Positions 3,640-54,674 of a DNA stretch of 64,000 nucleotides are shown piece by piece. The notes beneath the pieces were generated by a model. The model had not been told where the DNA came from, ran no database searches, and saw nothing but the letters and a program-made list of their open reading frames with translations. How positions within the stretch are numbered: the stretch's first letter is position 1; each line of letters starts with the position of its first letter. Both the position numbers and the translations under genes were made by a program. Origin of the DNA: Chloroflexia bacterium (GTDB lineage: Bacteria; Chloroflexota; Chloroflexia; QHBQ01; JADMIH01); contig DATINP010000033.1 of NCBI GenBank assembly GCA_035474135.1, forward strand, positions 2,334 through 66,333, given 5' to 3'.

Positions 3640-3930
3640 TTGGCATTGCTGCAAGAGCGCAAGAAGGAAATAGTCAGTAAGTACCAGGTTCATGGTACAG
3701 ACACAGGCTCACCTGAAGTACAGGTCGCCATCCTCACCACACGTATCAACGACCTTATTGCACATTTCAAGGCCCATACGCACGATCATCATTCGCGCCG
3801 CGGCCTCTTGAAAATGGTTGGTCGCCGCCGCCGTCTTCTCTCTTATCTGGCGAAGAACGACATTAACCGCTACCGCGAACTGATCTCCAGCCTCAATATC
3901 CGCGACATCCTCAATCGCCCCGGCGCATAA
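3640..3930 (+). CDS. rpsO: 30S ribosomal protein S15
   Basis: TTG start preceded by AGGAGG; sequence ...[49 protein letters not shown]... aligns with S15; conserved rpsO-pnp synteny. Confidence 0.9.
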
Positions 3931-4093: not shown

Positions 4094-6502
4094 GTGAACA
4101 CAGAACCAAAACAATTCAGCATCAATCTTGCTGGCCGCGAATTGACCATAGAGGTCGGTCGCGTGGCCGAGCAGGCTTCGGGTGCTTGTACTGTGCGCTA
4201 CGGCGATACAGTAATCCTCGCGGCTGTAGTCGCTGCCAAGGAGCCACGCGAAGGCGCAGACTTCCTGCCCCTTACTGTTGATTACGAAGAGAAGATGTAC
4301 GCCGCAGGCAAAATCCCCGGCGGCTTCATCAAGCGCGAAGGCCGGCCCACAGAAAATGCCACACTGACATCGCGCCTCACCGACCGCCCTATCCGCCCCC
4401 TTCTGCCCAAGCAGTGGCGCGCGGAGATCCAGGTGACAATCACTACACTGTCCACCGACCAGGTAACTGAGCCTGAAATCCTCTCTATCATCGGCACCTC
4501 CGCCGCCATGCTCCTCTCTGACCTTCCCTTCGCGGGTCCGGTCGGCGCGGCCAAAGTCGGCTACATCAACGGTGAGTTCGTGCTCAATCCCACCGCCCAG
4601 CAGTTCCAGGAATCGGAGTTAGAACTGAGCCTCGCGGGAACCGAGGATGCCGTGTCAATGGTCGAAGCCAGCGCACACGAGCTTCCCGAAGATATCATGC
4701 TGGAAGCCGTCAAATTCGGTTTCGAGCAAGGGGTCAAGCCAGTCGCCGCTCTGCAAAGACAGATCGTCGAGGCTTATCAGCCCAAGAAGCGCGACTGGCA
4801 GCCTCCCGTCGCCGACACCTCCTTTACCGATGAGGTAACGGCATGGATCGGCACTCGTATGGCCGACGAAACTCACGACTCGGACAAAACGGTACGGGAA
4901 GACCGCACCAACGCCCTCCGCGCCGAAACGATTGCTCACTTCACTGAGTCTGCTGATCTTTCGGATGAGGACAAGGCGAAAATCACCGCCAATGTGAACA
5001 AGGCCTTCGACGTCCTTCTGAAAGAGGAAGTTCGCAACGCGATCCTCGTGCGCGGCGAGCGCCCCGATGGACGCGGTCCCAAGGACATCCGCCCTATCAG
5101 TATCGAAGTGGGCGTCCTCCCACGCACCCACGGCTCGGCCCTGTTTACACGCGGCCAGACCCAGGTGCTCTCGGTCGCCACTCTCGGTACAGGCGCTGAC
5201 GAGCAAATGCTCGATGGCCTCGGCATCGAGGACACCAAGCGCTACATTCATCACTACAACTTCCCGTCCTACTCGACCGGCGAAACCCGCCGAGGCCGAG
5301 GGCCATCACGCCGCGATATCGGCCACGGTGCGCTGGCCGAGCGTGCTCTTGAGCCTGTTCTGCCTTCCCAGGCTGATTTCCCCTACGTGATACGCGTTGT
5401 AAGCGAAGTGCTATCCTCCAACGGCTCCTCGTCTATGGCCTCTGTGTGCGGCAGCACCCTTTCGCTCATGGACGCAGGTGTCCCGATCAAGGCCCCGGTC
5501 GCAGGCATCGCGATGGGCCTCGTCGAGAGCAAGGATGGCACCCAGCACAAGGTCCTCACCGACATCCAGGGCATCGAAGACGCACTGGGCGACATGGACT
5601 TCAAAGTCGCGGGCACATCCGAGGGCGTTACCGGCCTCCAACTTGACCTCAAGACACAGGGGCTGGCATTCGCTATCATGGAAGAAGCCTTCGCACAGGC
5701 TCGTGAAGCTCGCCTCTTTATCCTCGACAAGATGCAGGAAGTGCTGGCCGAGCCTCGCCACCAGCTTTCCGCTTATGCACCGCGCATTCTCCGTATCAAG
5801 ATCAACCCCGAGAAGATCGGCGCGCTGATTGGTCCCGGCGGTAAGAACATAAGAGGCATCACCGAAAAGACAGGTACCAAGATCGACGTTGAGGAAGATG
5901 GCACAGTGCTGGTGGCCTCGACCGACGGCGAGAGTGCCAAGCAGGCAATCCGCATGATCGAGGGCCTCACTAAAGAAGCCGAGGTGGGCGAAATCTACCT
6001 GGGCAAGGTGGTTCGCATACTTCCCTACGGCGCATTCGTCGAAATCCTGCCCGGCAAAGACGGCCTCGTGCACATCTCCGAACTTGCAGATTACCGCGTC
6101 GAAAACGTGGAAGACGTGGTAAGCCTGGGTGACGAGATCAACGTGATGGTAATCGACGTTGACCGCCAGGGCAAAGTTAGCCTGTCGCGCAAGGCCGTAC
6201 TCACCGGCGAAATGCCCCCGCCCCGCGCCGAGCGCGAGCGCAGTGGCTTCGGCGGTGGCGGTCGAGATCGAGGTCCCCGCGAAGGCGGTGGCGGTGGCGG
6301 ATATAACCGCGGCGGCCCCGGTGGCGGCGGCGGCGGTGGCGGCTACAACCGTGGTGGTCCAGGCGGTGGCGGTGGCGGTGGATATAACCGCGGCGGCCCC
6401 GGTGGCGCTCCCGGCGGTGGTGGCTACAATCGCGGCGGTGGCGACCGGCCCCCCCGCGAAGGCGGCGACCAGGGTTCACAAGAGGGCGGCAACCGCTGGT
6501 AA
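4094..6502 (+). CDS. pnp: polyribonucleotide nucleotidyltransferase (PNPase) with Gly-rich GGYNRGG-repeat C-terminal tail
   Basis: GTG start with RBS; two RNase PH-like domains, KH (KIGALIGPGGKNIRGI) and S1 (GKVVRILPYGAFVEI) domains, then an ~95-aa low-complexity tail. Confidence 0.95.
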   Translation: MNTEPKQFSINLAGRELTIEVGRVAEQASGACTVRYGDTVILAAVVAAKEPREGADFLPLTVDYEEKMYAAGKIPGGFIKREGRPTENATLTSRLTDRPIRPLLPKQWRAEIQVTITTLSTDQVTEPEILSIIGTSAAMLLSDLPFAGPVGAAKVGYINGEFVLNPTAQQFQESELELSLAGTEDAVSMVEASAHELPEDIMLEAVKFGFEQGVKPVAALQRQIVEAYQPKKRDWQPPVADTSFTDEVTAWIGTRMADETHDSDKTVREDRTNALRAETIAHFTESADLSDEDKAKITANVNKAFDVLLKEEVRNAILVRGERPDGRGPKDIRPISIEVGVLPRTHGSALFTRGQTQVLSVATLGTGADEQMLDGLGIEDTKRYIHHYNFPSYSTGETRRGRGPSRRDIGHGALAERALEPVLPSQADFPYVIRVVSEVLSSNGSSSMASVCGSTLSLMDAGVPIKAPVAGIAMGLVESKDGTQHKVLTDIQGIEDALGDMDFKVAGTSEGVTGLQLDLKTQGLAFAIMEEAFAQAREARLFILDKMQEVLAEPRHQLSAYAPRILRIKINPEKIGALIGPGGKNIRGITEKTGTKIDVEEDGTVLVASTDGESAKQAIRMIEGLTKEAEVGEIYLGKVVRILPYGAFVEILPGKDGLVHISELADYRVENVEDVVSLGDEINVMVIDVDRQGKVSLSRKAVLTGEMPPPRAERERSGFGGGGRDRGPREGGGGGGYNRGGPGGGGGGGGYNRGGPGGGGGGGYNRGGPGGAPGGGGYNRGGGDRPPREGGDQGSQEGGNRW

Positions 6503-6538
6503 GTAACTGACAGTTATGCTGTTTACGCAAAATAAGCT

Positions 6539-6571
6539 AGAGGGGGATGGCACTACTGCCTGTCCCCCTCT
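6539..6571 (+). terminator. stem-loop terminator candidate downstream of pnp
   Basis: AGAGGGGGA...15-nt loop...TCCCCCTCT, followed by a T-containing stretch. Confidence 0.45.
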
Positions 6572-6598
6572 GTCTTTAACTCAGGAGGCAATCCTAAT

Positions 6599-7144
6599 AT
6601 GAACGTACTCGAAGCGATCCGGCGCAAGCGCACCGTTCGCAAATATACCGACCAGCCTATCCCGCAGGACACGGTCGAACAAATCCTGTATGCAGGTCGC
6701 CGCGCTCAATCCTCCAAGAACCTGCAACCCTGGCACTTCATCGCCATCCAGAGCCGCGACACATTGACCGCCCTCTCCAAACTGGGCGACTACGCGACCC
6801 ATCTCCCGACCGCCGCGCTGGCCATTGCCATAATCACGCCGGATCCTGCGTCCCAGTACGCGGTCATGTTCGACGCAGGGCAGGCCGCAGCCTACATGCA
6901 GCTTGCCGCGCTCGACCTGGGCATCGGCTCGGGCATTATTACACTGCATAGGGCCGAACCTTCGCGAGAGATTCTCGGCTATCCCTCCAACCTCCACCTC
7001 CTGTTTTTGCTGGCCTTCGGCTATCCACAGGATCCCACAGCCGCGTTCAGCCCCGCATCGAGGCCGGGGGGCCGCTTGCCCACCAGCGAGATAATCCACT
7101 ACGAGCACTGGCAATCCCAAAGCCCAGCACAACCGGCAGAGTAG
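6599..7144 (+). CDS. nitroreductase family protein
   Basis: 181 aa; N-terminal RRTVRKYTDQPIP...NLQPWHFIAIQS block typical of NADH-nitroreductase fold. Confidence 0.8.
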   Translation: MNVLEAIRRKRTVRKYTDQPIPQDTVEQILYAGRRAQSSKNLQPWHFIAIQSRDTLTALSKLGDYATHLPTAALAIAIITPDPASQYAVMFDAGQAAAYMQLAALDLGIGSGIITLHRAEPSREILGYPSNLHLLFLLAFGYPQDPTAAFSPASRPGGRLPTSEIIHYEHWQSQSPAQPAE

Positions 7145-7523
7145 CACGAGGGAGAATAGGGGACTTCTAGGACACGTACGACCGCGCCCCGTCAAGCCCT
7201 GATAGGGGAATAAGCAAGTTCTCGACTGTTTCCGGTCAGACATTCCGGAGCATCTTGTAAGTGGCGAAACATTGTTCGCTTTGAATTCGTAATCATGTAT
7301 AATAGTCGCGACTTACAAACATAAAACCCAAATACGAAACGACCAAGGGATACGACACATGGCTAGGCAATGTCCGACCCAACCGTTCTCTGTTCGTGGC
7401 GAGCCGACGCTTAGAGTAGCCCACTCTAGTCAGGCTCCCACTCAAACACGCCCCGCTCTCCAGTCCACTGAACCAACTCGGCGCAATAGCAGCTCACAAC
7501 TGCCCGGTCCGCGCCTGTCCCCA

Positions 7524-8927
7524 ATGCTGGGGTGGTGGCCCAATGTACTGCCCATGCTCCGCGATCCCGCGATCAGCATGTTGCACCTCTGGTATCGCTA
7601 CGGCGACGCGGTATCCCTCGGCAACTATCGCGATGCGCCCATCCTGATAGTATTTTCGCCCGAGTACAACCGCTACGTTCTGACCAATAACGATATCTTC
7701 TACAGCCTCGATGTCAACAGCGGCGACGCACTGTTCAAAGTTCCGCCCGACACCTCGGCGGCGCGCCTCCTCTCCGGCATCGCGTCCATGAACGGTGAAG
7801 AACATACCGCGCATCGCCGCCTCCTCATGCCCAGCTTCCATAAGAAGCGCGTGGATGCCCTGCGTGACTCGATGGTTGAGTGCGTCGAGAACCATATCGC
7901 CGGCTGGCGCGATGGCGACCCGCGCATCCTCGTCAACGAAATGCTCGATCTCACTCTCGCCGTAGCAATCGTGGGCCTTATCGGTTTAAACCCTGCCGAA
8001 GAAGGCAAGCGCGTACGCAACCTGATCGAGCAGTGGAGCCAGCGCGGACTCACCCCACAGGTGGCTCTCCTCCCATACGACCTCCCCGGCACGCCCTATC
8101 GCCGCTTCCGCGTGCTGTCAGAACAGGTCGAAGCCGAACTGATCGAGGTAATCAAGCGCAAGCGCACCCGCGTCGGCTCGGCAGACGACGGCAACGAGGG
8201 CGATGCTCTCGCCCTGCTTATCCACGCGCAGGACGAAGACGGCACACTTCTTTCCGACAGCGACCTGATAGGGCATCTCAGCACTCTGTTCACCGCAGGC
8301 CACGAAACCACGGCCTCGGCCCTCACCTGGACGCTTTTCCTGCTCACCCAGCATCCCCACATACTAGCTGACCTCGTGGACGAACTCGACGGCGTATTGC
8401 ACGGTGATGCCCCGTCCCTCGAACAGCTACACAACCTCCCCCTGCTCGATAACATAGTGAACGAGGGGCTGCGGATGTTCCCGCCCGGCATGTGGATCTT
8501 CCGCACTGCTGTCAAGCCGTTTGAGCTTGGCCCCTACTCGCAGCCCGCCTTTTCCCAGCTTATCTTCAGCCCCACTGTTACCCACTACCGCCCCGACCTC
8601 TATCCGAATCCTCATACGTTCGACCCGCATCGATGGGAGACTATAAACCCTACGCCCTACGAATACCTGCCGTTCGGCGGCGGTCCGCGCCGTTGCCTCG
8701 GGGCAACCTTTGCCCTGCTTGAGATCAAGTTGGCGCTCTCCATTATCCTCCAGCGCTGGCGCATCGAGGTTCCCCACCGCCACCGCGTTGACCGCAGCGG
8801 CACGATTCTGTCCCGACCGAAAGACGGCCCACCCATCACTATCCACAAACAGGACCGCCACTTCGTCCACAGCGCAGTTCGGGGCAATATCCATGATCTC
8901 GTAGACTTCGGCCCCACCTACAAATAA
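7524..8927 (+). CDS. cytochrome P450 monooxygenase
   Basis: heme-ligand loop FGGGPRRCLGATFA, EXXR motif (ETTAS...EGLRM), AGHETT I-helix motif; start placed at the internal ATG 7524 because the 55 upstream codons of the ORF-track ORF (from 7359) look non-coding. Confidence 0.85.
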   Translation: MLGWWPNVLPMLRDPAISMLHLWYRYGDAVSLGNYRDAPILIVFSPEYNRYVLTNNDIFYSLDVNSGDALFKVPPDTSAARLLSGIASMNGEEHTAHRRLLMPSFHKKRVDALRDSMVECVENHIAGWRDGDPRILVNEMLDLTLAVAIVGLIGLNPAEEGKRVRNLIEQWSQRGLTPQVALLPYDLPGTPYRRFRVLSEQVEAELIEVIKRKRTRVGSADDGNEGDALALLIHAQDEDGTLLSDSDLIGHLSTLFTAGHETTASALTWTLFLLTQHPHILADLVDELDGVLHGDAPSLEQLHNLPLLDNIVNEGLRMFPPGMWIFRTAVKPFELGPYSQPAFSQLIFSPTVTHYRPDLYPNPHTFDPHRWETINPTPYEYLPFGGGPRRCLGATFALLEIKLALSIILQRWRIEVPHRHRVDRSGTILSRPKDGPPITIHKQDRHFVHSAVRGNIHDLVDFGPTYK

Positions 8928-9603: not shown

Positions 9604-11181
9604 TCAGTAGGCCCCTTCACCTCGAACCCAGGTGGGAATCGTCTTTAGAATTATACGCACGTCCATGGCGGGCGACCAATTCTCAGCGTAGTAGAGATCG
9701 AGCTTCACCATATCCTCGAAGGATAGATCCGACCTGCCGCTCACCTGCCACAGTCCCGTAAGGCCAGGCGTCACGTCCAGCCGCTTAAGGTGCCAGTCGT
9801 CGTAGCGCTCTACCTCGTCGGGGGTAGGCGGGCGTGGCCCGACCAGGCTCATTTCGCCCTTCAGGATATTGAACAACTGGGGCAACTCGTCCAACGACGT
9901 GCGCCGGATAATCTTGCCAAAGGAAGTCCTGCGCGGATCGTCCCGTAACTTGAACACAGGCCCTTCACGCTCACTCTGATACATAAGTGCGGCTTTTCGC
10001 TCTTCGGCGTCCTCGTACATGGAGCGGAACTTGTAGCACACGAAGGGAGTACCGCCCTTGCCCACGCGCTTTTGCCTGAATAGCACCGGGCCGGGCGACG
10101 TTAGCCGCACAAATAGAGCAATCAACAGCATCGGTACGCACGCCACCACCAGCATCACCAAGGCCAGCGTCGTATCCATCATGCGCTTTACAAACAGGTT
10201 GAAGCCCCGCAAAGCTACATCTTTCACACCTATCAAGGGCACGCCGTTCAGTTCGTCGATGCGAACCTCGTTGAAACGCATCTCAAAGAGGTCAGGGACC
10301 AGCTTAAAGTCTACTCCGAACTCGCGACAGCTATCGATGATCTCCAGGATTTGCGTGTGATGCATTGCAGGGAGAGTCACTATCATTTCATGCAAGTCCT
10401 GGCTCTCCAGGATGCGTCGCACGTCATTGATACTACCTAGCTTGCGTAATTCTCCGTTTCGAGGTTTGATGGGCACTCGCCAGTCACGGCGAAGTGGGTC
10501 CGTCGGATCTGACACATAACCCGCCAACTGGTAACCCAACTCAGGCCGCTCTACTATATCCTTCATAATGCGCTGGCCCGCCAGTCCCGCGCCGACCACT
10601 ACGGTACGCCTGATATTGATCCCCCGCTGCCACAGCCACATACGCAGAGCGCGATAAGCCATGCGCTCCAGGATGAACACCACCAGGGTACAAGCGCCCA
10701 GGAAGATAAAGAGCATCCTGCTGGGCAGCACAGGGTTAAGCAGCAAAGCGCCCAACGTCAAAACAGCCACTCCTATAACAGACCCTATCGTGATAAGGCG
10801 CATATGGTCGAGCCACGACGCACCACGAGGCAGGGCATATAAGCCTCTAGCCTGGAAGGTCAGGAGAGTTATTCCCACAAAGGCCACGATGTACCAGGTA
10901 AATGCCGAAAGCGGGCGGAAAGATTCCGGCGCAACGTCACTTCCAAGCTCGGCGCCATATCGAAGCCAGTAAGCAAGCACAAATGCTGCCCCCAACAGGA
11001 GGCCATCGGCCAACAACCGTAGCGCGATAAGCGCATATCGTGTTCTTCGCGCTCTACGCATACGCTCCTCGCCGGTACCAACGAGCGTCAAGTGCCGCCC
11101 GCCTGCTAACGAAATTTTGTCTTCTGTCATTTTTGGGCCGGTATCCACGCCAGGAACCGGCTGGTATTCAGGAGCTTCCAA
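9604..11181 (-). CDS. polyprenyl-phosphate hexose-1-phosphate transferase (WbaP/PslA-like initiating sugar transferase)
   Basis: multi-TM N-terminus plus C-terminal bacterial sugar-transferase domain (MMDTTLALVMLVV...SPGPVLFRQKRVGKGG..F.CYKFRSM...LDELPQLFNILKGEMSLVGPRP). Confidence 0.85.
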   Translation of the reverse strand: MEAPEYQPVPGVDTGPKMTEDKISLAGGRHLTLVGTGEERMRRARRTRYALIALRLLADGLLLGAAFVLAYWLRYGAELGSDVAPESFRPLSAFTWYIVAFVGITLLTFQARGLYALPRGASWLDHMRLITIGSVIGVAVLTLGALLLNPVLPSRMLFIFLGACTLVVFILERMAYRALRMWLWQRGINIRRTVVVGAGLAGQRIMKDIVERPELGYQLAGYVSDPTDPLRRDWRVPIKPRNGELRKLGSINDVRRILESQDLHEMIVTLPAMHHTQILEIIDSCREFGVDFKLVPDLFEMRFNEVRIDELNGVPLIGVKDVALRGFNLFVKRMMDTTLALVMLVVACVPMLLIALFVRLTSPGPVLFRQKRVGKGGTPFVCYKFRSMYEDAEERKAALMYQSEREGPVFKLRDDPRRTSFGKIIRRTSLDELPQLFNILKGEMSLVGPRPPTPDEVERYDDWHLKRLDVTPGLTGLWQVSGRSDLSFEDMVKLDLYYAENWSPAMDVRIILKTIPTWVRGEGAY

Positions 11182-11314
11182 TCTTAAACCTGCATAGCCT
11201 TCGGCCTACGGCGTTACAACCGCATCTCCCCATAAACGTTAATAGTTTAGTGCCGCGTGCCGTCGAAATTTAGCTTCCAATAAGCCGATATATTATAGCA
11301 TACAAGCCTCACGT

Positions 11315-13594
11315 TTGCCCCATTTTAAATCTATGTGTATAATGTGGTTTAAGCAAAGATCGAGCCATCATAGGCGCCAAGCCCAATTCTTGCAAGGAAG
11401 CAAGTTTGGTGCCATTTTCTATGCTCCGCACTTTGCGTATGCCGGTATAGAGCCAGGAGGAACTAAATCGTTGTCAAAGCAGACCGCTTCCCGGAGCGGA
11501 TCGGGTAATCGTGGCGCGCGCCGCAAGGACACTCAGCCGGACGGAGTATCCCCAGCAGAACGCACCACAGAAGACATAAGTCAGGCAACCGGTGGTCACC
11601 CCACGGGCGGTGGCAAGCAGCACTCTACTTCTTCCTCATCCTCAACTCCTTTCCTGCAGAACTCCAACGGCTCAAATTCGAATCATGCCGCGATGTCGGC
11701 GGACGACCCGGCCCTATTGAGCGTGGGCGGTCTTCCTATTTCTCCCGTCTTACCTACCACAGCCGAATACATGCAGATGCGAACCTCGCGAAGGCGCAGG
11801 TGGTTGCGGTTCGGTATCTTTATAGTGTTGATCGCCCTGATCTCCGAGAGCATTTGGCTCTCACCCTTCAGCGACAGCGCGGCGAACGCGGTCCCTCGCC
11901 AGCCTGATCCTATCCCCCTCGCAGAAGTCCAACCGTATGGTGTGAACACTTTCCTCCACAAAGAGGTAGATAGCTGGAAGAAAGATAAAACCATGCAAAT
12001 GGCCAAGGACCTGGGCGTGGGGTGGATCAAGCAGCAGTTTCCCTGGGCCGAGATTCAATTCAGCCCAAGCTCTGATCCCAAGATTGGCTATTGGGATAAC
12101 AAGAACGGCCAGAGCGCCTGGACCAAGTACGACAATATCGTGAGCCTTGCCCAACAGTATGGCTTGCGAGTTGTAGCGCGTATTGATAGCGCGCCTCTCT
12201 GGTCACACCCCGGTAACCCCGACCCCAAGGCTCCGCCGGACGCCGCGCACATGGCCGATTTCGGCGACTTTGTCGGCACCTTCGTAAACCGCTACCGAGG
12301 CAGTATCGCCGCCATCCAGGTCTGGAACGAACCTAACCTCAAGGGCGAGTGGGCAACGGGCAATCCCGTCAATGCTGCTGAATACACAGACCTGCTCAAA
12401 GTAGCGTATACAGCCGCCAAAAACGTCAATCCCGATATCATAGTGCTGGCCGCACCCCTCGCCACAACCTTCGAGTCCCTTGGCTATGCCGGCAACTTGA
12501 ACGAACTGGACTACATGCAGGACATGTACGACGCAGGCGCAAAGCCCTACTTCGACGCTATGGCTGCCAATGCCTACGGCACCACATTCGCCCCCGAAGA
12601 CCCACCATCACCTGACAGACTGAACTTCCGCCGAGTCGAGCTTTTGCATGACATCATGGTCAAAAACGGTGACGCTAACAAAGCGGTCTGGTTCAACGAG
12701 TACGGCTGGAATAGCTCACCTGACGACATAACAAATGTGCCCTGGGGCCGCGTCACGACCGAACAACAGGGCGACTATACCGTGCGCGGCATCCAATACG
12801 CCCGCCAGAACTGGCCCTGGGCGGGAGTATTCACTATATGGTATCTGCGCCAGGTCGGAGATATTCCCCGCACCAACAGTGAATTCTATTTCGGCCTCGT
12901 TGATCCCGACTTCAGGACGAGCGTTGCTTACGACCGTATCCAGGCTGCAGCCACCGTCCTCGACAGCGTGGCCGGGCCAGGAGTGTGGGGTCCTCTCACG
13001 GCACCTGTCACATCTGACCCACGCTGGCGCATTCGACTGGGCGACGTCACAGGGGGCATGTATCTGGCGCCCTCGGCCCTCGATATTAGCCTGAGCGTAC
13101 CGTTCAAAGGGACAGACGTATCGGTGCAGCTGGTGCCCCTCCAGAGCGCGGGTGCGATCACCGCCACGCAAACCGTTGGTGCCCGCTATTATGTGACCAT
13201 AGACGGTTCGTCACGCTCCGTGATCTCTGACCTACCTCGCGACGCAAGCGGCAATGCTTATATAGACGTCCCCGCTGTGGGCGCACCTCTCAATCTCGTG
13301 GTTGCGAAAGGGATCAATGCTGAATTCCAGACCGGGCAGCACACCCTTGGGATAAGGGTCGCCGCCAACCCGGCCGGGGTACAGCCACCGCTTGGTGGCC
13401 GCACATATGCGCCCCTCGTGCAAAGCCCTAACCTGCCGGGCATTGGCCTAATCACGGTTGAAGCTCACCGCTCCTATATTCTATTCGCCCTCTTGACGCT
13501 GGCGCTTCTCCTGGCGGGTGCATATCTCGTCTGGCTATTACGTAAGCCGCCCCCACCCTTGCCTGGGCCTGATTCTGCGGCTCCCGGGCGCTGA
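11315..13594 (+). CDS. membrane-anchored clan GH-A (GH5/GH39-like, PslG-like) glycoside-hydrolase-domain protein; start uncertain (alternatives at 11693 and later)
   Basis: low-complexity N-terminus, one TM helix (FGIFIVLIALI), TIM-barrel hydrolase motifs IQVWNEPN (acid/base) and FNEYGW (nucleophile); second TM near the C-terminus; stop TGA overlaps the next ATG by 1 nt. Confidence 0.6.
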   Translation: MPHFKSMCIMWFKQRSSHHRRQAQFLQGSKFGAIFYAPHFAYAGIEPGGTKSLSKQTASRSGSGNRGARRKDTQPDGVSPAERTTEDISQATGGHPTGGGKQHSTSSSSSTPFLQNSNGSNSNHAAMSADDPALLSVGGLPISPVLPTTAEYMQMRTSRRRRWLRFGIFIVLIALISESIWLSPFSDSAANAVPRQPDPIPLAEVQPYGVNTFLHKEVDSWKKDKTMQMAKDLGVGWIKQQFPWAEIQFSPSSDPKIGYWDNKNGQSAWTKYDNIVSLAQQYGLRVVARIDSAPLWSHPGNPDPKAPPDAAHMADFGDFVGTFVNRYRGSIAAIQVWNEPNLKGEWATGNPVNAAEYTDLLKVAYTAAKNVNPDIIVLAAPLATTFESLGYAGNLNELDYMQDMYDAGAKPYFDAMAANAYGTTFAPEDPPSPDRLNFRRVELLHDIMVKNGDANKAVWFNEYGWNSSPDDITNVPWGRVTTEQQGDYTVRGIQYARQNWPWAGVFTIWYLRQVGDIPRTNSEFYFGLVDPDFRTSVAYDRIQAAATVLDSVAGPGVWGPLTAPVTSDPRWRIRLGDVTGGMYLAPSALDISLSVPFKGTDVSVQLVPLQSAGAITATQTVGARYYVTIDGSSRSVISDLPRDASGNAYIDVPAVGAPLNLVVAKGINAEFQTGQHTLGIRVAANPAGVQPPLGGRTYAPLVQSPNLPGIGLITVEAHRSYILFALLTLALLLAGAYLVWLLRKPPPPLPGPDSAAPGR

Positions 13595-16500: not shown

Positions 16501-16788
16501 ATAATGGGTCTGCTCGTGCTTGTATGGCTCCTGTGGCGCTACTATCGGGAGGCCATAAACCTTGCGAGGTGGTGCGCGTCCAAGGCAGCCTCGGATGCGC
16601 TCCTGCGTGCGGTAGTAATTGGCCTGATCGCCGCCATGACCGACTTCCTGGTACACGGCCTGGTCGACAACTCGTACTTCCTGATGGACCTCGCACTGAT
16701 CTTCTGGCTGAGTTGCGGCGCTATACAGTTAGGTCGTATGCTTTATGTGGACGGGGGACGGCAGACGGCAGACGGCGGTAGGAATTGA
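13594..16788 (+). CDS. fusion protein: N-terminal clan GH-A hydrolase-like domain (paralog of the previous gene) plus C-terminal multi-TM O-antigen polymerase/ligase (Wzy_C-like) domain
   Basis: YQIWNEPN and WISEYAW catalytic-type motifs, then 10+ TM helices with LTYSRGAWVGAAVAIVL and RIDIWVSALKMGRDHPFFGIGQDQF (O-antigen-ligase family signatures); 1064 aa in one frame. Confidence 0.65.
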   Translation: MRLARPLVNDISANPIARAVLACLLLATCVGSLVGVSYVDNYVNAGVAWGGPPPDIPLADVDPMGVNLFLEKEPDPANVVKSLDMAQAGGFKWIRQDFAWNDIEISAKGNFTDTRNPGNPVSSWAKYDFIVDQAVAHGITIMARLDSPPVWARKPGDDLETYHKGPPANNNDYGDFVAAVAARYKGKIKYYQIWNEPNLLGEWGGHPVNAEQYVALLKVAHDHIKAVDPDAVIVSAALAPTTEESAANRSDILFLEDMYREGAKPYFDIMSTMIYGLGQPPSDRRTDFKRLSFSRPVLLHEVMERNGDALKPIWISEYAWLSYPDDLQQRLNLSPDEWAAFQAKNIWGKSVDEQTQGQYLVEGYERARDEWPWMGVMFVWHLRNPDGDPLEPATYFSILNQDFTPRPAYLALQEYSKVVPSTPTPQSKPLLNALGFPFLYALFGLLALASFAFLGLSVGEWARAALNRPRGRYSERTRETARNGAAIVGMGACYALFYVVGNLPVIVVALAGYLVIAFFKPQAALAFVAFSIPFFWYPKVYGSQHFPVAETLVVMAFAALIARRTVAALLPRLWARLGQPGMSPITSQAVVVDLRATKPIPINEPISAPEQAPVAEAPEAVDLSPAEWPARPRELIAELAKPLPLNGEREESRAAARRRRSDDALPQANYLDPLLARFRAWNRQDAFAAPAVALLLIGALSMLTLANHDFAPDSARAYRWIVIEPVLLYFLLTDIIRTKRGLVRVLDFFVGAGVFVAFIGLWQFVGGSNTLAVEGVSRVMSVYEHPNNLALYLGRVAPFAACTALFLPWGWRKLLYALAALPLFATFLLTYSRGAWVGAAVAIVLAVSIGLRWPLSRESAKPTRAFRAWLTAVGVGAVAVAIAVVFLFPSLPDRFINPDSGVKRIDIWVSALKMGRDHPFFGIGQDQFLNQYQLKNLDGTYHYITKAQVAELYTSHPHNIVLDWWLSLGIMGLLVLVWLLWRYYREAINLARWCASKAASDALLRAVVIGLIAAMTDFLVHGLVDNSYFLMDLALIFWLSCGAIQLGRMLYVDGGRQTADGGRN

Positions 16789-16940: not shown

Positions 16941-16959
16941 CGAAAAGGGGGCAGTTACT

Positions 16960-17922: not shown

Positions 17923-17945
17923 CGATCCGCAGGCCGCGCTTCTCC

Positions 17946-46641: not shown

Positions 46642-47592
46642 CTAGCCGTGCGGCGGGTCGGGTCGATTCGCGACCGCCAGAATTTCCCTCGTGCGGGCTG
46701 TGTCCGCGTCCATCTGCTTGATGAGAGGCTCTATGCCCTCATAGCGCACCTGCGGGCGCAGATGCTCCACAAAGTAGGCGGTTAGTGTTTCGCCGTACAG
46801 GTCGGCGTCGTAGTCCACAATGAACACTTCCACCAGGCGAGCGTCGTCATCGAACGTGGGCCGGGTGCCGATGCTGGTCAGGGAAGGCAGCATCTCGCCC
46901 GTAGCAGGGCGGCTACACCAGGTTGCGTATACGCCATCGGCCGGCAAAGCCTGGTTAGGCAGCAATGCGAGATTGGCAGTGGGATAACCCAACTCACGCC
47001 CACGTCGTGACCCCGGTACAACAGTGCCTGGCACAGTCTGATAATGTCCCAGGAGACGAGCCGCCAGCGCCACATCGCCCGACATAACTGCCCCGCGCAC
47101 GCGAGTACTGCTCACAGGCTCACCGTCCACTTCCACCAGGGGCGCGATGTGGAGAGTATAGCCAAGCTGTTCGCCCAGCGCGGCCAGCACGTCAGTGTTG
47201 CCGGTGCGGCCATGCCCCAGAGCGAACCCGTCCCCCTCCCACAATTCATTGAAGGGAAGATAGCGCCGCACCCAAGCGATAAAATCGGGTGCCTCTACCT
47301 GGGACAACTCCCTGGTGAAGGTCACCACGATCAGTTCGTCCAGCCCTGTCTCCGCGAGGAGACGGGTCTTCTCGGGCAAGCGCGTCAGATAGGCCACAGG
47401 CTGGCCGGGCCTCAGCACCTCCCGTGGCGCAGGCTCGAAGGTCAGCGCAACGGCAGGTATGCCCTTCGCGCGCGCACTCGCCACAGCACCGTCTATAAGA
47501 GAGCGATGCCCCAAGTGTACGCCATCAAACGAGCCGATGGTCAATATTCCAGGCCCCGGCTCTCTAGCGGTCAGATCGGTTAGTACTCTCAT
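46642..47592 (-). CDS. ribF: bifunctional riboflavin kinase / FMN adenylyltransferase
   Basis: LTIGSFDGVHLGHRSLI nucleotidyltransferase motif and C-terminal riboflavin-kinase domain (PTANL, GxY..W). Confidence 0.9.
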   Translation of the reverse strand: MRVLTDLTAREPGPGILTIGSFDGVHLGHRSLIDGAVASARAKGIPAVALTFEPAPREVLRPGQPVAYLTRLPEKTRLLAETGLDELIVVTFTRELSQVEAPDFIAWVRRYLPFNELWEGDGFALGHGRTGNTDVLAALGEQLGYTLHIAPLVEVDGEPVSSTRVRGAVMSGDVALAARLLGHYQTVPGTVVPGSRRGRELGYPTANLALLPNQALPADGVYATWCSRPATGEMLPSLTSIGTRPTFDDDARLVEVFIVDYDADLYGETLTAYFVEHLRPQVRYEGIEPLIKQMDADTARTREILAVANRPDPPHG

Positions 47593-48259: not shown

Positions 48260-49171
48260 CTATCTGCCTGCTGCAAACACCTTCTTTGGGTGCCACATCT
48301 CGCTTGCTTCGTCCCATTCAGCTATTGCGAGCAAACTGCCATTGGTGCCTCTGAGGGCCGCCAACCTGTTGTTATCCGCTTTACCGGCAGGTAAAGGCAG
48401 TGCCTTGCCATGCAAGACATCCTGCTCGCCTGCTTCGTCTACATTATACACAGGCCAACCCGCCAGAATACTCTCAGGCGGGCGCAGGCTCTCGTGCCAG
48501 GTACCTGCACCGAACGCAGATTCCATCCCCTCAAGAGTTATGGCATCATCCAGAGTAAACGCTCCCACCCGAGTGCGCACAAGCCCACCAAGATAGGCTC
48601 CCGTGCCAAGGGCCACGCCAAGATCGTATGCCAACGACCGTATGTACGTGCCTTTACTGCACTCTACGAAAAGTTGGAGTGTCGGAGGCGTGTAAGCCTC
48701 AATGTCCAATTTGCTGATTGTCACTCGGCGCGCTTTGCGCTCGACTTCGATGCCTTGGCGCGCCAGATCATACAGCTTCTTGCCTCCCACCTTCAACGCG
48801 GAGTGCATAGGTGGAACCTGCTCAATAGTACCCCGAAACTCTGACAGGGCCTTCTCTATGGTCGAGAGATCGGGCATGACAGCATCGGGCGTGGGCGTGA
48901 TCGTGCCTTCGGCATCATACGTGTCGCTCGTGGCCCCCAGGATTACGACCGCACGGTATGCTTTATCGGCCTCGGCCAGATATTCCACGAGCCGGGTGGC
49001 CGCGCCCACCACTACAGGCAGCACGCCCGTAGCCATAGGATCAAGCGTGCCGGCGTGCCCTACCCGGTCACGCGTTGCAGATTCGGGGTTACGAATTATG
49101 CGCCGTACGCGTGCCACTACGTCATGCGAAGTCATGCCCTGTGGCTTATCAATAACAAAAATGCCGTCCAT
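48260..49171 (-). CDS. truB: tRNA pseudouridine(55) synthase
   Basis: FVIDKPQGMTSHDVVARVRRI catalytic-Asp motif, C-terminal PUA-like region; start at the internal ATG (MDGIF) because the upstream ORF extension is the repeat element. Confidence 0.9.
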   Translation of the reverse strand: MDGIFVIDKPQGMTSHDVVARVRRIIRNPESATRDRVGHAGTLDPMATGVLPVVVGAATRLVEYLAEADKAYRAVVILGATSDTYDAEGTITPTPDAVMPDLSTIEKALSEFRGTIEQVPPMHSALKVGGKKLYDLARQGIEVERKARRVTISKLDIEAYTPPTLQLFVECSKGTYIRSLAYDLGVALGTGAYLGGLVRTRVGAFTLDDAITLEGMESAFGAGTWHESLRPPESILAGWPVYNVDEAGEQDVLHGKALPLPAGKADNNRLAALRGTNGSLLAIAEWDEASEMWHPKKVFAAGR

Positions 49172-49192
49172 TAGTGGGTCCACCTGGCGATT

Positions 49193-49253
49193 AGACGACA
49201 GACGACGGTTAGTGGGTACTGTCGTCCGTCGTCGGTCGTCCGTCGTCCGTCGC
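49193..49253. repeat. intercistronic tandem-oligomer element E: AGACGACAGACGACGG, 12-nt loop, then (GTCGTCC/GTCGTCG/GTCGGTC) repeats
   Basis: read directly; lies between the nrnA stop and the truB start; encodes the nrnA tail DDGRPTTDD. Confidence 0.8.
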
Positions 49254-50309
49254 ATCGAGCACAGCTTTGCAAGCCTCTATGAACAGCCTGTCGGCTTCAG
49301 CCCCGATGGCGGGTATGGTAGCGCCAGCGGCCTGGGTATGGCCTCCACCACCGAACTTGCGTGCAATGCTTGCGACGTCTACCCCGGGATTACTGCGTAT
49401 CGAGGCGCGAGTAGTGCCGTCGTCACGCTCCTTCAGCACCGCCGCCACCTTCACGGCTCCGCGCACGGTCGCCAGGTAGCTCGACAGCCCCTCAAGCTCT
49501 TCTTCTTTCGCCCCGGCCGAGTTCAACATCTGCGGCGTTACGTGTATATAAATCACACGCCCGTCTGCACCCAGTGACACGCTCCCAAGAGCCTTGCTCC
49601 ACAGCATGATGGTGGATAGCGGCCTGGTATTGAATACCTCGTCAATGATGTTGTAGAGGTCGCCACCGCGCTCCATCATATAGGCGGCTATCTTGAGCGA
49701 ACGCGAGGTGGTAGAGGGCGTCCTGAATCCGAGAGTGTCGGTAACAACGCCCAGCAAGATGTACCGGGCTATATCAGCGTCCACCGCCCATCCCAGTTCG
49801 TTGAGGGCCGCCGCAACCTGCTCTGCGCAAGCGGCAGCGTTCACATCCAGAAGTTGCAAGTCGCCAAAGCGCACATTGGTAGCGTGATGGTCCATGTTGA
49901 GGACTTTCACCCCGCCCTCGCCCCGCAGCATGGCCTCGTTAGCGGTGAAGAACCCGCCGGTACGTGCCGGGTCGCTTATGTCAAGGCAGGCTATGTGCGT
50001 GGGCGGCGGGCCAGGCGGCACGTCACCTATGAAGACGTCGGCGGGATTGTAGAATGGCGCATACACGTCGGGGATGGGGTCGGTCGACACCACGACACAA
50101 TCATACCCGCGCATTTTCAGCGCAGTCCCAAACGCCAGCGTAGACCCGAGCGAATCGCCATCAGGGCTGACGTGAAGGGGTATCCAGATGCGCCCTGCAC
50201 CTTGCAGCCACTCGGCGATCTTCGTGTACTGAGGCATGGTCCATGCAGGTACGCGCTCGTCGGGCACGCTGCTCGATTCAGGTTCAGATTGGGTGTTATT
50301 GTTACTCAT
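49209..50309 (-). CDS. nrnA: DHH-family bifunctional oligoribonuclease / pAp phosphatase NrnA
   Basis: DHH motif region (HVSPDGDSLGS...DHH) and DHHA1 domain; start chosen at MSNNNTQ so as not to overlap rbfA. Confidence 0.75.
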   Translation of the reverse strand: MSNNNTQSEPESSSVPDERVPAWTMPQYTKIAEWLQGAGRIWIPLHVSPDGDSLGSTLAFGTALKMRGYDCVVVSTDPIPDVYAPFYNPADVFIGDVPPGPPPTHIACLDISDPARTGGFFTANEAMLRGEGGVKVLNMDHHATNVRFGDLQLLDVNAAACAEQVAAALNELGWAVDADIARYILLGVVTDTLGFRTPSTTSRSLKIAAYMMERGGDLYNIIDEVFNTRPLSTIMLWSKALGSVSLGADGRVIYIHVTPQMLNSAGAKEEELEGLSSYLATVRGAVKVAAVLKERDDGTTRASIRSNPGVDVASIARKFGGGGHTQAAGATIPAIGAEADRLFIEACKAVLDATDDGRPTTDDSTH

Positions 50310-50352
50310 CGGGGAATCACAACTTGCGGGCTGGAGCTCATTGCCGCGATCT

Positions 50353-50727
50353 TTACGTGGTAGGCTCCGGCTTTTCCGACGTTGTTTCAGCATCGTGCAA
50401 CTCGGTGAGCAGGCGATTGATGCGATCGCTATATTCCAGGCTCCTATCGAGCTTGAACTGCACCTCTGGCACACTGCGTGTGGTCAGGCGGGTGGCTACT
50501 TCGTGGCGCACGAATCCACGCGCACTTTCCAGCGCGACCATGCTTGCCTTCTGGTCTTCGGGCGTTCCCATCACGCTTACAAAGACGCGCGCGTACTTGA
50601 GGTCTCGACTGACCTCCACCCGCGTCACCGTCACAAACCCCAGCCGTGGGTCCTTCAACTCGCGCTGGATCAGATACGAGACGATGTGTTGTATTTCTTC
50701 CGCAACTTGTATATGCCTTGTGTTCAT
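50353..50727 (-). CDS. rbfA: ribosome-binding factor A
   Basis: RIAEEIQHIVSYLIQRELKDPRLGFVTVTRVEVSRDLKYARVFVSV matches RbfA along its length. Confidence 0.9.
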   Translation of the reverse strand: MNTRHIQVAEEIQHIVSYLIQRELKDPRLGFVTVTRVEVSRDLKYARVFVSVMGTPEDQKASMVALESARGFVRHEVATRLTTRSVPEVQFKLDRSLEYSDRINRLLTELHDAETTSEKPEPTT

Positions 50728-50850: not shown

Positions 50851-53004
50851 TTATTTTACGGCTATTTGCTCTTTCCTGTAGAACTCCAGGGTATCGCCTT
50901 CCTCGAAGTCGTTGAAGTTGGTCAGCGAGATGCCGCACTCGTAGCCCTGAGCCACGTCGCGTACATCGTCCTTGAACCTCTTGAGGGCCGAGACCGTGCC
51001 ATCATAGATGACAGCGCCGTTCCTCAGTAAGCGTACCTGTGCGTTGCGCGTGGCCTTGCCTTCAGTTACGATCAAGCCAGCGGCCTGCTCGTTCTTCGGG
51101 AGGCGGAAGACCGCACGCACTTCGGCGTAGCCGTCGGTTACGTCGTGGAATGTCGGCTCAAGCAGACCCTTCATTGCCAGCTCGATGTCCTCCGACAACT
51201 TATAGATGATATCGTAGAACCTGATTTCGATGCGGTTCTTGTCGGCTGCCCGCTTCGCGGCGGCATCAGGCCGTACGTTGAACCCAACGATAATCGCGCT
51301 TGAAGCGACGGCCAGCGCCACGTCCGACTCGGTGATCCCGCCCGTTCCACGGTGCAGGATTGACACCTTCACGTCCTCGTTGGTCAGCTTCTGTAAGGTC
51401 TGCGTAATCGCTTCCAGCGAACCTTGCACGTCGGCTTTGAGGATAAGGCGTAATTCTTTTACCTTGCCGGCCTGTATCTGGGCGAACAGGTCGTCCAGGT
51501 TCACGGACTTGATGCTCTGGGCTGCTTCCTCGAACCGGCGAATACGCGCCCTCTGATCAGCGATCTCTTTCGCTGTAGTTTCGTCGGGCGCTACTACTAG
51601 CGTATCACCCGCCTGGGGCACACCCGATAGGCCAAGTATTTCTGCCGGGGTCGATGGTTCTGCTTTACGCAGCTTGCGACCCTTGTCGTCTTGCATAGCC
51701 CTTACACGGCCCCAGGTCGCCCCTGCCACGACATAATCGCGCAGATTGAGCGTGCCGTTGCCGATAAGCACGGTAGCAATTGGACCACGGTTTCTGTCCA
51801 TCTCGGCTTCGACTATAGTGCCTGTGGCGCGCCTCTGTGGGCTGGACTGCAGGTCGCCCAGTTCTGCCACCAGCAGGATCGTCTCCAACAGGTCCTGTAT
51901 GCCGGTGCCTGCGCGGGCCGATACCTTGATATACTCGGTATCGCCTCCCCACTGGGTCGGCACAAGGCCCTGATCCGAAAGCTGGGTCATTACACGGTCA
52001 GGGTTGGCTTCCTCGCGATCCATCTTGTTGATAGCAACCACGATAGGCACGTTGGCAGCCTGTGCATGGGCCAATGCCTCCAGTGTCTGGGGCATAACTC
52101 CGTCGTCTGCCGCCACCACCAGCACAACGATGTCCGTGATCTGGGCGCCGCGGGCGCGCATGGCTGTAAAGGCTTCGTGGCCCGGTGTGTCCAGGAACGT
52201 GATCTTCTTGCCCTGCAACTCGACCTGGTATGCACCGATGTGCTGGGTGATGCCACCTGCCTCGGTGGCGATCACGTTAGCTGAGCGGATGGTATCGAGC
52301 AGTTTGGTCTTGCCGTGGTCTACATGGCCCATGATAGTAACCACGGGCGGACGCAATGATTGCCTGCTTGTATCTGCCGCTTCCTGTTCGGCGGTCAGCA
52401 ATTCTCCCAGGTCTTCTTCTACTTCCAGTTTGGCTTCGGTTACTTCGTAACCCATGCCGATAGCAGCTATTGCAGCCGTTTCATAGTCAATTTGCTGGTT
52501 GATCGTGGCGAGTACCCCGTGCTTGATCATTTCGGCGATCACTTTTGTGGGGTTCACGTTCATCAGTTCGCCAAGCTCTTTGACGGTTAAATAGGGCGGA
52601 ATAGCTACTTTGGGCGTAGGGCGTTCCACACCCAGGCCAAGCCCGCGTGCGGCCCCGAAGCCACGAGTAGAGGCTGCCGCGCCGCCACCGCCACCTCGGA
52701 AGCCGCCTCTGCCGCCCCCGAAGCGATTGCTGCCGCCGTTTTGCCCACCGAATCCGGGTCGAGCCCCACCGCCGCCTGGGCCGGTCCTGTTAAAGCCGCC
52801 TGGGCGGGCTGCACCGCCCCTCGCCGGGGGTCGTCCCCCGCTAGGGCGTCCGGGTGCTCCCGGGCCACCGCCCGGCCTGCCACGTCCCGGTGTGCGCGGT
52901 GTGCGCCCAGGACCACTCGCTTCTTCTTCCGGCGTATCATCGCCTGCACCTGCATCACGTCCGCTAGTGGGCGCAACAACTACGTAATCTATTTTCTTTG
53001 GCAT
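50851..53004 (-). CDS. infB: translation initiation factor IF-2 with Gly/Arg/Pro-rich N-terminal region
   Basis: G-domain motifs [19 protein letters not shown](R/K); C-terminal beta-barrel domains; 717 aa. Confidence 0.95.
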
Positions 53005-53456: not shown

Positions 53457-54674
53457 CTAGGCTTCCGCTTCGACCTCTGCGGCTACATGTTCGACCTGCA
53501 ACTCCTGGTCGTCTTCAACAGGTTCGCCTGTTACGTAGCCGTTCTCATCTATGGCGTGACCATTATTAGCCGCTTCGGCCCTCAGCATATCGACCGCGCG
53601 GCGCGCCAGTTCTTCGTCGTCCATCTCTTCCGAATCTTCGTCCGAAAGGGCGCTCTTGATGTCAATTCTCCAACCTGTTAGCTTGGCAGCGAGACGAGCG
53701 TTCTGCCCTTCTTTGCCTATCGCTAGTGACAGCATTCTTTCTGGGACGAGCACAGACGCTGTCTTGTGTTCCTCGTTGAGTTCGACCGACAGCACCTGAG
53801 CCGGCGATAGGGCGTTCGCGATGTACACGGACATATCCGGGTCCCAGAGCACCACGTCTATTTTCTCGCCGCCCAGTTCGTCCACAATCTTCTGGATGCG
53901 CTGGCCTTTCATGCCCACGCACGACCCTACAGGGTCAACGTTGGCCTGGCGTGCGGCCACCGCTACTTTCGAGCGCATACCCGACTCGCGGGCGATGCTC
54001 TTGATCTCGACAGCGCCACTGTGTATCTCCGGCACTTCAAGTTCGAACAAACGCCGCAAGAAAGCGCGGTCGGCGCGCGATACGATTAGCTGCGGTCCCT
54101 TCTGGTTCTTCTGCAACACTTCCAGCAAAAGCACTCGCATACGAGTGCCTGATCGGTATCGCTCGCTCTTTACCTGGTCCTTGGGCTGGAGAATAGCTTC
54201 TGCCCTCCCCACTTCCAAAATCCAGTTGCCGTTCTGGTCCTGGCGTTGCAGGTTTGCAAGCACAATATCGCCTTCGCGGTCACTGAACTCGCCTACCACG
54301 CGGTCGCGCTCGGCCTCGCGTATCCTCTGCATAACCACCTGCTTGGCGGTCTGCGCGGCAATTCTGCCAAAGTCGGCAGGCGTGGTCTCTTTTTCAAGCA
54401 TGTCGCCGACCTGGGCTTCCGGGTTGGTAGAACGTGCCTCGTCAAGCGACACCTCTGTGGATGGATCTTCTACTTCGAGGGCCACGGTGCGCCGCTCAAA
54501 CACGCGAGCATCTCCTGATTGCAGGTCCAATTTCACGGCCACGTTCTGGTCGGTACCGGCGATACGCCTGTATGCGGTTATTATTGCGTCCTCGATACCC
54601 CGCAAAATAGCTTCGCGGGAAATATTGCGTTCTGATGCTATCTGGTTTATAGCGGCATAAAGATCACTCTTCAT
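53457..54674 (-). CDS. nusA: transcription termination/antitermination factor NusA
   Basis: N-terminal RNAP-binding domain, S1 and two KH domains (GxxG boxes); 405 aa. Confidence 0.95.

Follow-up and report, generated by a model that had tools for sequence, protein, structure and literature searches.

Bacterial RNA-decay condensates have so far been built on intrinsically disordered regions (IDRs) of RNase E or of DEAD-box helicases, and polynucleotide phosphorylase (PNPase) is seen as a folded client. In Caulobacter, the C-terminal RNase E peptide EKPRRGWWRR docks into a hydrophobic pocket of PNPase, and mutating either Trp of this peptide abolishes the binding of the two enzymes (PMC3376730). 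Caulobacter PNPase does not phase-separate alone but is a client of RNase E condensates, and PNPase activity is reported to be stimulated inside such condensates. Here we describe a PNPase with a long low-complexity tail of its own behind S1, its last folded domain. The enzyme is encoded by the pnp gene of a Chloroflexia bacterium (GenBank assembly GCA_035474135.1, contig DATINP010000033.1, positions 2,334 to 66,333 of the forward strand); this whole stretch of 64,000 nucleotides is referred to below as the window, and positions are counted from its first letter.

Related regions have been described on other RNA-handling proteins. The IDRs of the Pseudomonas aeruginosa RhlE helicases promote RNA binding, unwinding and phase separation, and the IDR of RhlE2 is sufficient for RNase E binding (PMC11260450). 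E. coli CsdA carries an R/G-rich condensation tail (bioRxiv 10.64898/2026.09.17.752289), and the Gly-rich region of cyanobacterial Rbp1 is reported to be important in cold adaptation (PMC9333190). For the RRM of FUS to bind RNA, no fewer than three RGGs have to be appended to it, and RGG regions beside the folded domains give most of the RNA affinity of this protein (PMC5570134). The RGG region of LAF-1, whose phase separation is driven by Arg and Tyr, has 168 amino acids, among them 24 Arg (14.3%), 11 Tyr (6.5%), 1 Phe and no Lys. Our literature searches returned no description of an RGG, Gly-rich or disordered C-terminal tail on PNPase, and nothing on PNPase or RNA decay in Chloroflexota. 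A disordered tail of Gly, Arg and aromatic residues on an RNA-binding protein is of a well-known kind, while its phylum-wide presence on PNPase and its Tyr-rich form with an Arg-Trp (RW) tip are new.

A Gly/Arg-rich tail follows the S1 domain of PNPase

The pnp product is 100% identical to NCBI entry HST03439.1, labelled PNPase of 'MAG TPA Chloroflexia bacterium' (MAG, metagenome-assembled genome). It contains the full PNPase domain set in canonical order (two RNase_PH, RNase_PH_C, the PNPase helical domain, KH_1 and S1), each domain above its Pfam gathering score, and its best matches in the PDB are bacterial PNPases (E = 2.8e-236). These solved PNPases align to the query only up to residue ~698-717, and none found in the PDB search has a comparable tail. 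In an AlphaFold2 (AF2) model based on a 78-sequence alignment the core is confident; its strands extend to residue 698, and residues 700-704 form a short helix. The features of the gene are:

4094..6502, plus strand: pnp (PNPase), 802 amino acids, GTG start, TAA stop at 6500-6502, tail included
5789..5962, plus strand: KH domain (residues 566-623), Pfam KH_1, E = 1.2e-11
5978..6193, plus strand: S1 domain (residues 629-700), the last folded domain, Pfam S1, E = 6e-19
6194..6241, plus strand: conserved post-S1 linker AVLTGEMPPPRAERER (residues 701-716), near-identical in all close homologues
6242..6499, plus strand: Gly/Arg/Tyr/Asn/Pro low-complexity tail proper (residues 717-802), predicted to be disordered
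6284..6451, plus strand: four GG..YNRGG units, spaced 42/39/42 nt, with an ABAB codon pattern
6485..6499, plus strand: C-terminal tip GGNRW, with a conserved Arg-Trp terminus

Past S1 the pnp frame runs uninterrupted for 102 residues, AVLTGEMPPPRAERERSGFGGGGRDRGPREGGGGGGYNRGGPGGGGGGGGYNRGGPGGGGGGGYNRGGPGGAPGGGGYNRGGGDRPPREGGDQGSQEGGNRW, with no stop up to the TAA. A first-pass annotation of this DNA had described a low-complexity in-frame tail at this place, with the content GGGGRDRGPREGG and the ending REGGDQGSQEGGNRW, and on these points it was accurate. Gly accounts for 48 of the 102 residues (47%), versus 8.7% of the core (binomial p about 4e-24). The tail further contains 13 Arg, 10 Pro, 6 Glu, 3 Asp, 5 Asn, 4 Tyr, 1 Phe and 1 Trp but no Lys; its net charge is +4, Ser and Gln contribute 2% each, and Asp and Glu together 9%. 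The aromatic residues are spaced by 18, 14, 13, 14 and 24 residues, the four Tyr lying 13-14 apart. Over the 78 sequences, L703, T704 and G705 of the linker are invariant and A701 and P708 are conserved in at least 90%. Along this linker the predicted local distance difference test score (pLDDT) of the AF2 model drops from 70 to 42, and residues 712-802 stay at 28-42 with no secondary structure. The tail is hence predicted to be intrinsically disordered.

The YNRGG units begin at nucleotides 6284, 6326, 6365 and 6407. They had been described as four copies of GG(G)nYNRGGPGG with a repeat period of 33-39 nt. There are indeed four YNRGG units, but PGG follows only three of them (the fourth reads YNRGGGDR), and the period has to be corrected, as the units lie 42, 39 and 42 nt apart. 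Tandem Repeats Finder reported periods of 42 (3.8 copies) and 81 (1.8 copies, 88% match) at 6283-6438. One codon pattern is common to units 1 and 3 and another to units 2 and 4. This ABAB pattern and the period of 81 nt (88% identity) indicate that a block of two units was duplicated recently. The Gly codons of the tail are GGC (29), GGT (17) and GGA (2); the preference for GGC over GGT is alike in tail and core, and GGG is used in 0 of 48 tail and 3 of 61 core Gly codons. The GC content is 76% in the tail versus 60% in the core.

The tail is retained and constrained in close homologues

We compared the window PNPase with 44 full-length close homologues from NCBI, JGI, ENA and Logan assemblies, which have 74-96% core identity and each represent a separate 90%-identity cluster. 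A tail is present in all 44, with a length of 84-173 residues (median 116), the same Gly/Arg/Asp/Pro/Tyr composition and a shared start, AVLTGEMPxPRAERER. Two outcomes that the first-pass annotation had named as fatal to its reading, PNPases of close relatives ending at S1 and a tail out of frame with PNPase, were therefore not observed: the relatives are tailed, and the tail is in frame. The RW terminus is found in 36 of the 44 homologues (in 22 as part of GNRW), and the last residue is aromatic in 42. Since the RW terminus is kept in so many tails, all changes of tail length are in frame. The net charge of the tails stays at +1 to +8 although their length doubles.

Independent assemblies are consistent with this picture. 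One homologue with a 96% identical core (P0002) is represented by contigs from two samples, with 21 synonymous DNA differences in pnp and an identical protein, and another (P0003) is located on a 1.06-Mb contig. Two tails are frameshifted. In a PNPase fragment (P0121) the tail shifts into an Ala/Val/Trp/Arg frame inside the GGN repeat; at L002:5040-5580 the tail is also frameshifted in the GGN repeat, and the shifted frame ends ...PPERRW*, by which the RW terminus is recovered. A sequencing error is the probable cause in L002, which comes from a long-read MAG. GGN tracts are frameshift-prone in some assemblies, and truncated or shifted PNPase calls in Chloroflexota MAGs need care.

Between the window tail and that of the relative L081 there are 41.5 synonymous and 9.5 non-synonymous differences, with a proportion of synonymous differences (pS) of 0.60, and the ratio of non-synonymous to synonymous rates (dN/dS) is 0.046 in the tail and 0.037 in the core. 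In both comparisons with L083 the tail has a dN/dS of 0.22; the core value versus the window is 0.07. Over the comparisons made, tail pS was 0.56-0.62 and core dN/dS 0.037-0.077. These sequence comparisons indicate that selection maintains the composition of the tail rather than its exact sequence, and that tail length evolves fast. Judged from the homologues, the existence of the tail as a genuine translated extension of PNPase is secure, the count of four units being that of the present assembly.

An Arg/Gly-rich extension of PNPase is a trait of the Chloroflexota

For a taxonomic survey we used 80 named genomes (20 Chloroflexota, 60 other) with matches listed at 48-58% identity. Among the matches listed, R/G-rich PNPase tails of 31-163 residues are present in all 20 Chloroflexota, which comprise Anaerolineae, Dehalococcoidia, Chloroflexia, Sphaerobacteraceae, Limnocylindrales and Ardenticatenaceae, and 51 of the 60 PNPases from other phyla have 0-21 residues after S1. 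The nine exceptions among these matches are scattered: Solirubrobacterales, a Coriobacteriia, an Eisenbacteria, a Selenomonadaceae, a few Clostridia and one Betaproteobacterium. The earlier remark that such a tail is unusual on PNPase is therefore borne out for bacteria outside the Chloroflexota and does not apply within the phylum.

All 118 nearest homologues with a readable tail have an R/G-rich one. More distant Chloroflexota PNPases (61-68% identity, n = 74), one of them from Candidatus Chlorohelix allophototropha, have a median tail of 53 residues, and a few reach 150-197. Their tails consist of GGDRGPRP-type repeats with 0.5% Tyr; RW is the ending of 21 of the 74, Phe or Tyr that of another 9, and PRRR that of most others. 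PNPases across the Chloroflexota share an Arg/Gly-rich extension past S1, which is unusual in bacteria at large. Its long, Tyr-bearing form tipped with GNRW is specific to one Chloroflexia subclade, where the tail was elaborated: it grew by in-frame tandem duplication to about 85-175 residues and gained regularly spaced Tyr/Phe and a conserved Arg-Trp C-terminus.

The tail motif recurs on RNA-binding proteins

We searched metagenome contigs for the exact peptide GYNRGGPGG written as degenerate DNA and obtained 38 loci. Thirteen were short or out-of-frame chance matches, and the other 25 gave a readable protein context. In 24 of these 25 the context is an RNA-binding protein (12 uS3, 8 RRM proteins, 3 PNPases and 1 IF2 N-terminal region); the last is an unidentified low-complexity protein. 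Pfam analysis of eight representatives confirmed the RNA-binding class of seven and gave no match for the eighth (L106). In these metagenomic carriers the motif is attached to folded RNA-binding domains of unrelated families. It is thus almost confined to appendages of RNA-binding proteins, which is the strongest evidence, albeit indirect, that the PNPase tail concerns RNA.

The uS3 carriers (L085, L090, L091, L094, L097, L099, L103, L108, L109, L114, L117 and L118; Pfam KH_2 and Ribosomal_S3_C) have C-terminal tails of ~120 residues with GGYNRGGPGG / GGDRG repeats, and most come from samples Ga0123353, Ga0123355 and Ga0123356. Up to 7 YNRG units are found in the uS3 tail of L117 (L117:16-1047:+). 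The small RRM_1 carriers with Gly/Arg/Tyr tails (L087, L098, L104, L105, L111, L113, L116 and L119) end in RRY (7 of 8) or RSW (1 of 8), echoing the RW terminus of the PNPase tails. L106 (L106:3-989:+) is an N-terminally incomplete open reading frame (ORF) of 329 amino acids, extremely G/R/P/Y-rich, with GGPGGYNRGGPGGYGPP in its translation and eight Arg in a row (R8) close to the C-terminus; by its sequence it may be another RNA-related disordered protein.

Comparison with known disordered regions

Like the LAF-1 RGG region, the PNPase tail is Gly-dominated, disordered, Lys-free, of mixed charge, interspersed with Tyr and located on an RNA-handling enzyme. The Arg contents are 12.7% in the tail versus 14.3% in LAF-1 and the Tyr contents 3.9% versus 6.5%, so that the Tyr density of the tail is about 60% of that of the LAF-1 RGG, which has about 1.7-fold more Tyr. 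The composition of the tail and its AF2 pLDDT below 50 (residues 712-802) are those of a LAF-1-like RGG-type IDR. Unlike the RGG regions of LAF-1 and FUS, the tail is bacterial, is C-terminal to S1 on a phosphorolytic exonuclease trimer and is Pro-rich (10%). It had been called FUS-like, and this is apt insofar as its composition is near that of phase-separating RGG regions. The FUS prion-like S/Y/G/Q domain, however, is Ser/Tyr/Gly/Gln-rich and near-uncharged, unlike the tail (Ser 2%, Gln 2%, Arg 13%), and the spacing of a strict RGG box is missing, as detailed below. The tail is nearer to the RGG regions of LAF-1 or FUS and to glycine-rich RRM proteins than to the FUS prion-like domain.

With RhlE1, RhlE2 and CsdA the tail shares the architecture of an Arg/Gly-rich disordered C-terminal extension on a bacterial enzyme of RNA metabolism. 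It differs from them in being on an exoribonuclease, in containing Tyr and in being near-neutral (+4) rather than highly basic. Cyanobacterial Rbp1, the plant glycine-rich RNA-binding proteins and the metagenomic RRM and uS3 proteins likewise have a Gly/Arg/Tyr tail attached to a folded domain that binds RNA; unlike PNPase, the glycine-rich RRM and uS3 proteins have another folded domain and no catalytic core. As in the bacterial ribonucleoprotein bodies of Caulobacter, a disordered region is found on an RNA-decay enzyme, in Caulobacter one that organises condensates that include PNPase. In the Chloroflexota, however, the IDR is on PNPase itself, whereas in Caulobacter it is on RNase E and PNPase is tail-less; and unlike the RNase E scaffold, the PNPase tail has neither charge blocks nor known microdomains. 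It does have a conserved RW terminus and a conserved GEMPPPRAERER start; the AF2 monomer model showed no docking.

Possible function of the tail

Arguing by analogy, we favour with moderate confidence the reading that the tail is an auxiliary disordered RNA-binding arm at the RNA-entry face of the trimer. As each tail exits S1, the homotrimer would surround its KH/S1 face, the entrance for RNA to the central channel, with three flexible arms. In such a flexible Gly-rich chain, Arg and aromatic residues would bind RNA non-specifically, which would give the weak S1/KH sites more avidity and aid the capture or remodelling of structured substrates, much as the RGG regions beside folded RNA-binding domains do in FUS and in bacterial DEAD-box helicases. 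That the arms add non-specific RNA affinity and avidity is, in our estimate, somewhat probable, and they may also help with structured substrates. As a trimer combines three such tails of ~13 Arg and 6 aromatic residues, the enzyme would be multivalent. If the arms do bind RNA, this multivalency may allow RNA-dependent clustering or condensation, a tentative suggestion and the least certain step of the proposal.

Several points weigh against an RNA-binding arm. Both RNA binding and condensation by the tail are inferred from composition and analogy. There are only 4 Tyr in the window tail, and the rough Wang-type estimate quoted in the LAF-1 paper, 6.5 mM/(nTyr x nArg), a formula that the same paper doubts, gives ~125 uM per isolated tail versus 24.6 uM for the LAF-1 RGG, i.e. 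a weaker value. The tail dN/dS values given above come from protein-guided alignments, which in a low-complexity tail bias dN, and so dN/dS, downward. Nor do counts over the close homologues represent independent events, given the common ancestry of these sequences. The strict RGG/RG motif, reportedly defined by Thandapani et al. in 2013, is a di- or tri-RGG or a di- or tri-RG with spacers of 0-4 residues. A regular-expression search of the window tail found 0 tri-RGG, 0 di-RGG, 0 tri-RG and 0 di-RG, so that the tail fails this definition; its four RGGs are 11 residues apart. Among the close orthologues, 16 of 44 have a di-RGG and 27 of 44 a di-RG at the strict spacing.

Searches with the tail alone also count on this side. 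In a word-indexed set of 5.8 billion, a HMMER scan of 1.84 billion representatives and the PDB they gave essentially no matches and missed even the self-match inside full-length PNPase. The queries to the word-indexed set were the window tail and a poly-G-free tail from P0005 at E <= 10. Over all of these searches, the sole matches were the frameshifted PNPase fragment P0121 and a marginal 96-residue hypothetical protein (P0130). Tail-only searches fail because of the composition correction of HMMER and the saturation of words by poly-Gly. The tails are untraceable by sequence search, and therefore any 'homology' between them amounts to compositional similarity; in the HMMER and PDB searches with the tail alone, homology to the RGG regions of LAF-1 or FUS was not demonstrable.

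The alternative that survives best, although we consider it rather unlikely, is that of a docking tail, in which the Gly-rich tract would be a tether and the RW tip, perhaps with the GEMPPPRAERER start, would bind a partner or another trimer. Candidates would be an endonuclease of the RNase E/G, J or Y type, a helicase, or a pocket on another PNPase trimer, and the analogies are the linker plus tip of SSB-type proteins and, in Caulobacter, the RNase E microdomain with its Trp residues by which PNPase is recruited. Of the close tails 36 of 44 retain the RW terminus, as do 21 of 74 distant ones, despite indel reshuffling in between; this terminus reappears in the shifted frame of L002, and the eight RRM proteins with GYNRGGPGG end in Arg-aromatic (7 RRY, 1 RSW). 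The Caulobacter precedent, in which binding of EKPRRGWWRR to the PNPase pocket is lost on mutation of either Trp (PMC3376730), and the RhlE2 IDR, sufficient to bind RNase E (PMC11260450), speak for docking as well. In the AF2 monomer, however, the tip has a pLDDT of 28, the lowest of the chain, and does not dock in cis; the ending of many Chloroflexota tails is PRRR or otherwise non-aromatic; and a mere tether needs no conserved Tyr/Arg content, narrow net charge or composition. The docking and RNA-binding readings are compatible and partly overlap.

We judge it unlikely that the tail is a neutral expansion, that is, that GC-rich GGN repeats slip at a dispensable end and are tolerated, selection removing no more than the harmful frames or compositions. 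The length range of 84-173 residues in close relatives, the 23 gapped columns between proteins with 96% identical cores, the recent duplication seen in the ABAB units and the 81-nt period at 88% identity, and the GC content of 76% in the tail versus 60% in the core are what slippage would give, and most bacteria do without a PNPase tail. Yet an R/G-rich tail is retained in every Chloroflexota class among the matches listed, and tail dN/dS is 0.05-0.22 with synonymous divergence near saturation. Net charge is conserved, Lys wholly avoided, aromatic residues recur every 13-14 residues and the termini are conserved, and nearly all metagenomic carriers of the motif are RNA-binding proteins. These signatures of selection lead us to disfavour neutral slippage.

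A bolder form of the RNA-binding proposal, which we also hold to be improbable, is that this PNPase carries its own scaffold and is not a client of RNase E. The tails would then drive RNA-dependent condensation into degradosome-like bodies, and the RW tip would dock like the Caulobacter Trp microdomain, either joining one trimer to the next in head-to-tail fashion or bringing in a nuclease or helicase as partner; binding of the RW tip to PNPase is itself pure conjecture. Finally, an artefact, with the repeat tract mis-assembled or the tail a read-through or out-of-frame stretch outside the native protein, is hardly credible: such tracts are error-prone, and the tails of P0121 and L002 are indeed frameshifted, but 44 cluster representatives, one on a 1.06-Mb contig, have an in-frame tail of the same kind and terminus, two samples that differ in their DNA yielded one identical protein, tail codon usage matches the core, and a terminator-like hairpin lies past the stop codon.

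IF2 and the surroundings of pnp

Further features of the window that bear on pnp and on low-complexity regions are:

3640..3930, plus strand: rpsO (ribosomal protein S15), directly upstream of pnp; a 96-amino-acid Ribosomal_S15 gene in relatives
6534..6576, plus strand: terminator-like hairpin followed by GUCUUU, starting 32 nt past the pnp stop codon
50851..53004, minus strand: infB (IF2), Pfam IF-2, GTP_EFTU and IF2_N
52618..52887, minus strand: G/R/P/F-rich low-complexity N-terminal region of IF2, from a six-frame Gly scan

The rpsO-pnp pair is also present in the relatives L081, L082 and L083 and is thus conserved. Folding of the RNA of 6500-6585 gave -32.4 kcal/mol (z = -4.98 versus shuffles), and the GC-rich hairpin at 6534-6576 is likely an intrinsic terminator. 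A simple terminator scan overlooked it because of a loop-length limit, and direct folding recovered it. An Rfam scan of the window matched no RNA family. Two ORFs that overlap the tail, 6159..6506 (plus strand) and 6201..6530 (minus strand), are shadows that the GGN repeat casts in other frames and were rejected as genes. Downstream of pnp come a nitroreductase-family gene and a cytochrome P450, at 6599-8927 (plus strand) in the window and at 12575-14827 in L081. The order SBP_bac_5, SecG, S15, PNPase, nitroreductase and P450 is kept in the 96%-identical relative (L081) and only partly in L083.

The first-pass annotation had named infB as a neighbour of pnp with an analogous N-terminal RGG/FGG region. 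The two genes are in fact about 44 kb apart, infB lying on the minus strand, whereas the region itself was correctly recognised: residues ~31-130 of IF2 are G/R/P/F-rich, with 40 Gly, 16 Arg, 5 Phe, 3 RGG and 2 FGG. As variable low-complexity N-termini are common in IF2, this region is weak evidence alone. Such regions are present in 2 of the ~6 RNA-handling proteins of the window (PNPase, IF2, NusA, TruB, S15 and the DHH phosphoesterase) and in 0 of ~40 other window proteins. A six-frame scan of 83 loci for G/R-rich ORFs found only PNPase tails, the window IF2 and out-of-frame shadow ORFs. The proposal that RGG-type regions are a lineage-wide property of RNA-handling proteins receives indirect support from these sequences.

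The infB gene belongs to a minus-strand cluster at 46642-54674 of the order nusA-infB-DHH-truB-ribF, with nusA at 53457..54674, infB at 50851..53004, a DHH/DHHA1 phosphoesterase gene at 49209..50474, truB at 48260..49255 and ribF at 46642..47592. In E. coli rpsO-pnp follows truB; here the pair is detached from the truB cluster, 40 kb away and on the opposite strand. Elsewhere, the window contains at 9604-25256 a polysaccharide or cell-envelope gene cluster that encodes a Bac_transf sugar transferase, two Wzy_C O-antigen-ligase-like proteins (one of 1064 amino acids), two NAD-dependent epimerase/dehydratases, a Polysacc_synt flippase, a GT4 glycosyltransferase and an LPG_synthase_TM protein. 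A sensor histidine kinase of 1311 amino acids with GAF, PAS, HisKA and HATPase_c domains is encoded at 57322-61257 (plus strand). Four large ORFs of 759, 668, 763 and 752 amino acids (11315-13594 and 44580-46586 on the plus strand, 54787-57081 and 61386-63647 on the minus strand) had no Pfam match at E <= 1e-5.

Implications for RNA decay in Chloroflexota

The PNPase tail is a lead into RNA decay in Chloroflexota and for the field of bacterial condensates. The Chloroflexota tails are a natural test of whether such tails make an exonuclease RNA-capturing or self-organising. Together, the tails of uS3, RRM proteins, IF2 and PNPase are evidence that the Gly/Arg/Tyr 'grammar' of RNA-binding IDRs may serve bacteria as well as eukaryotes. 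If PNPase did carry its own scaffold, this would be an independent, exonuclease-centred organisation of mRNA decay, a bacterial counterpart of RGG-driven ribonucleoprotein granules.

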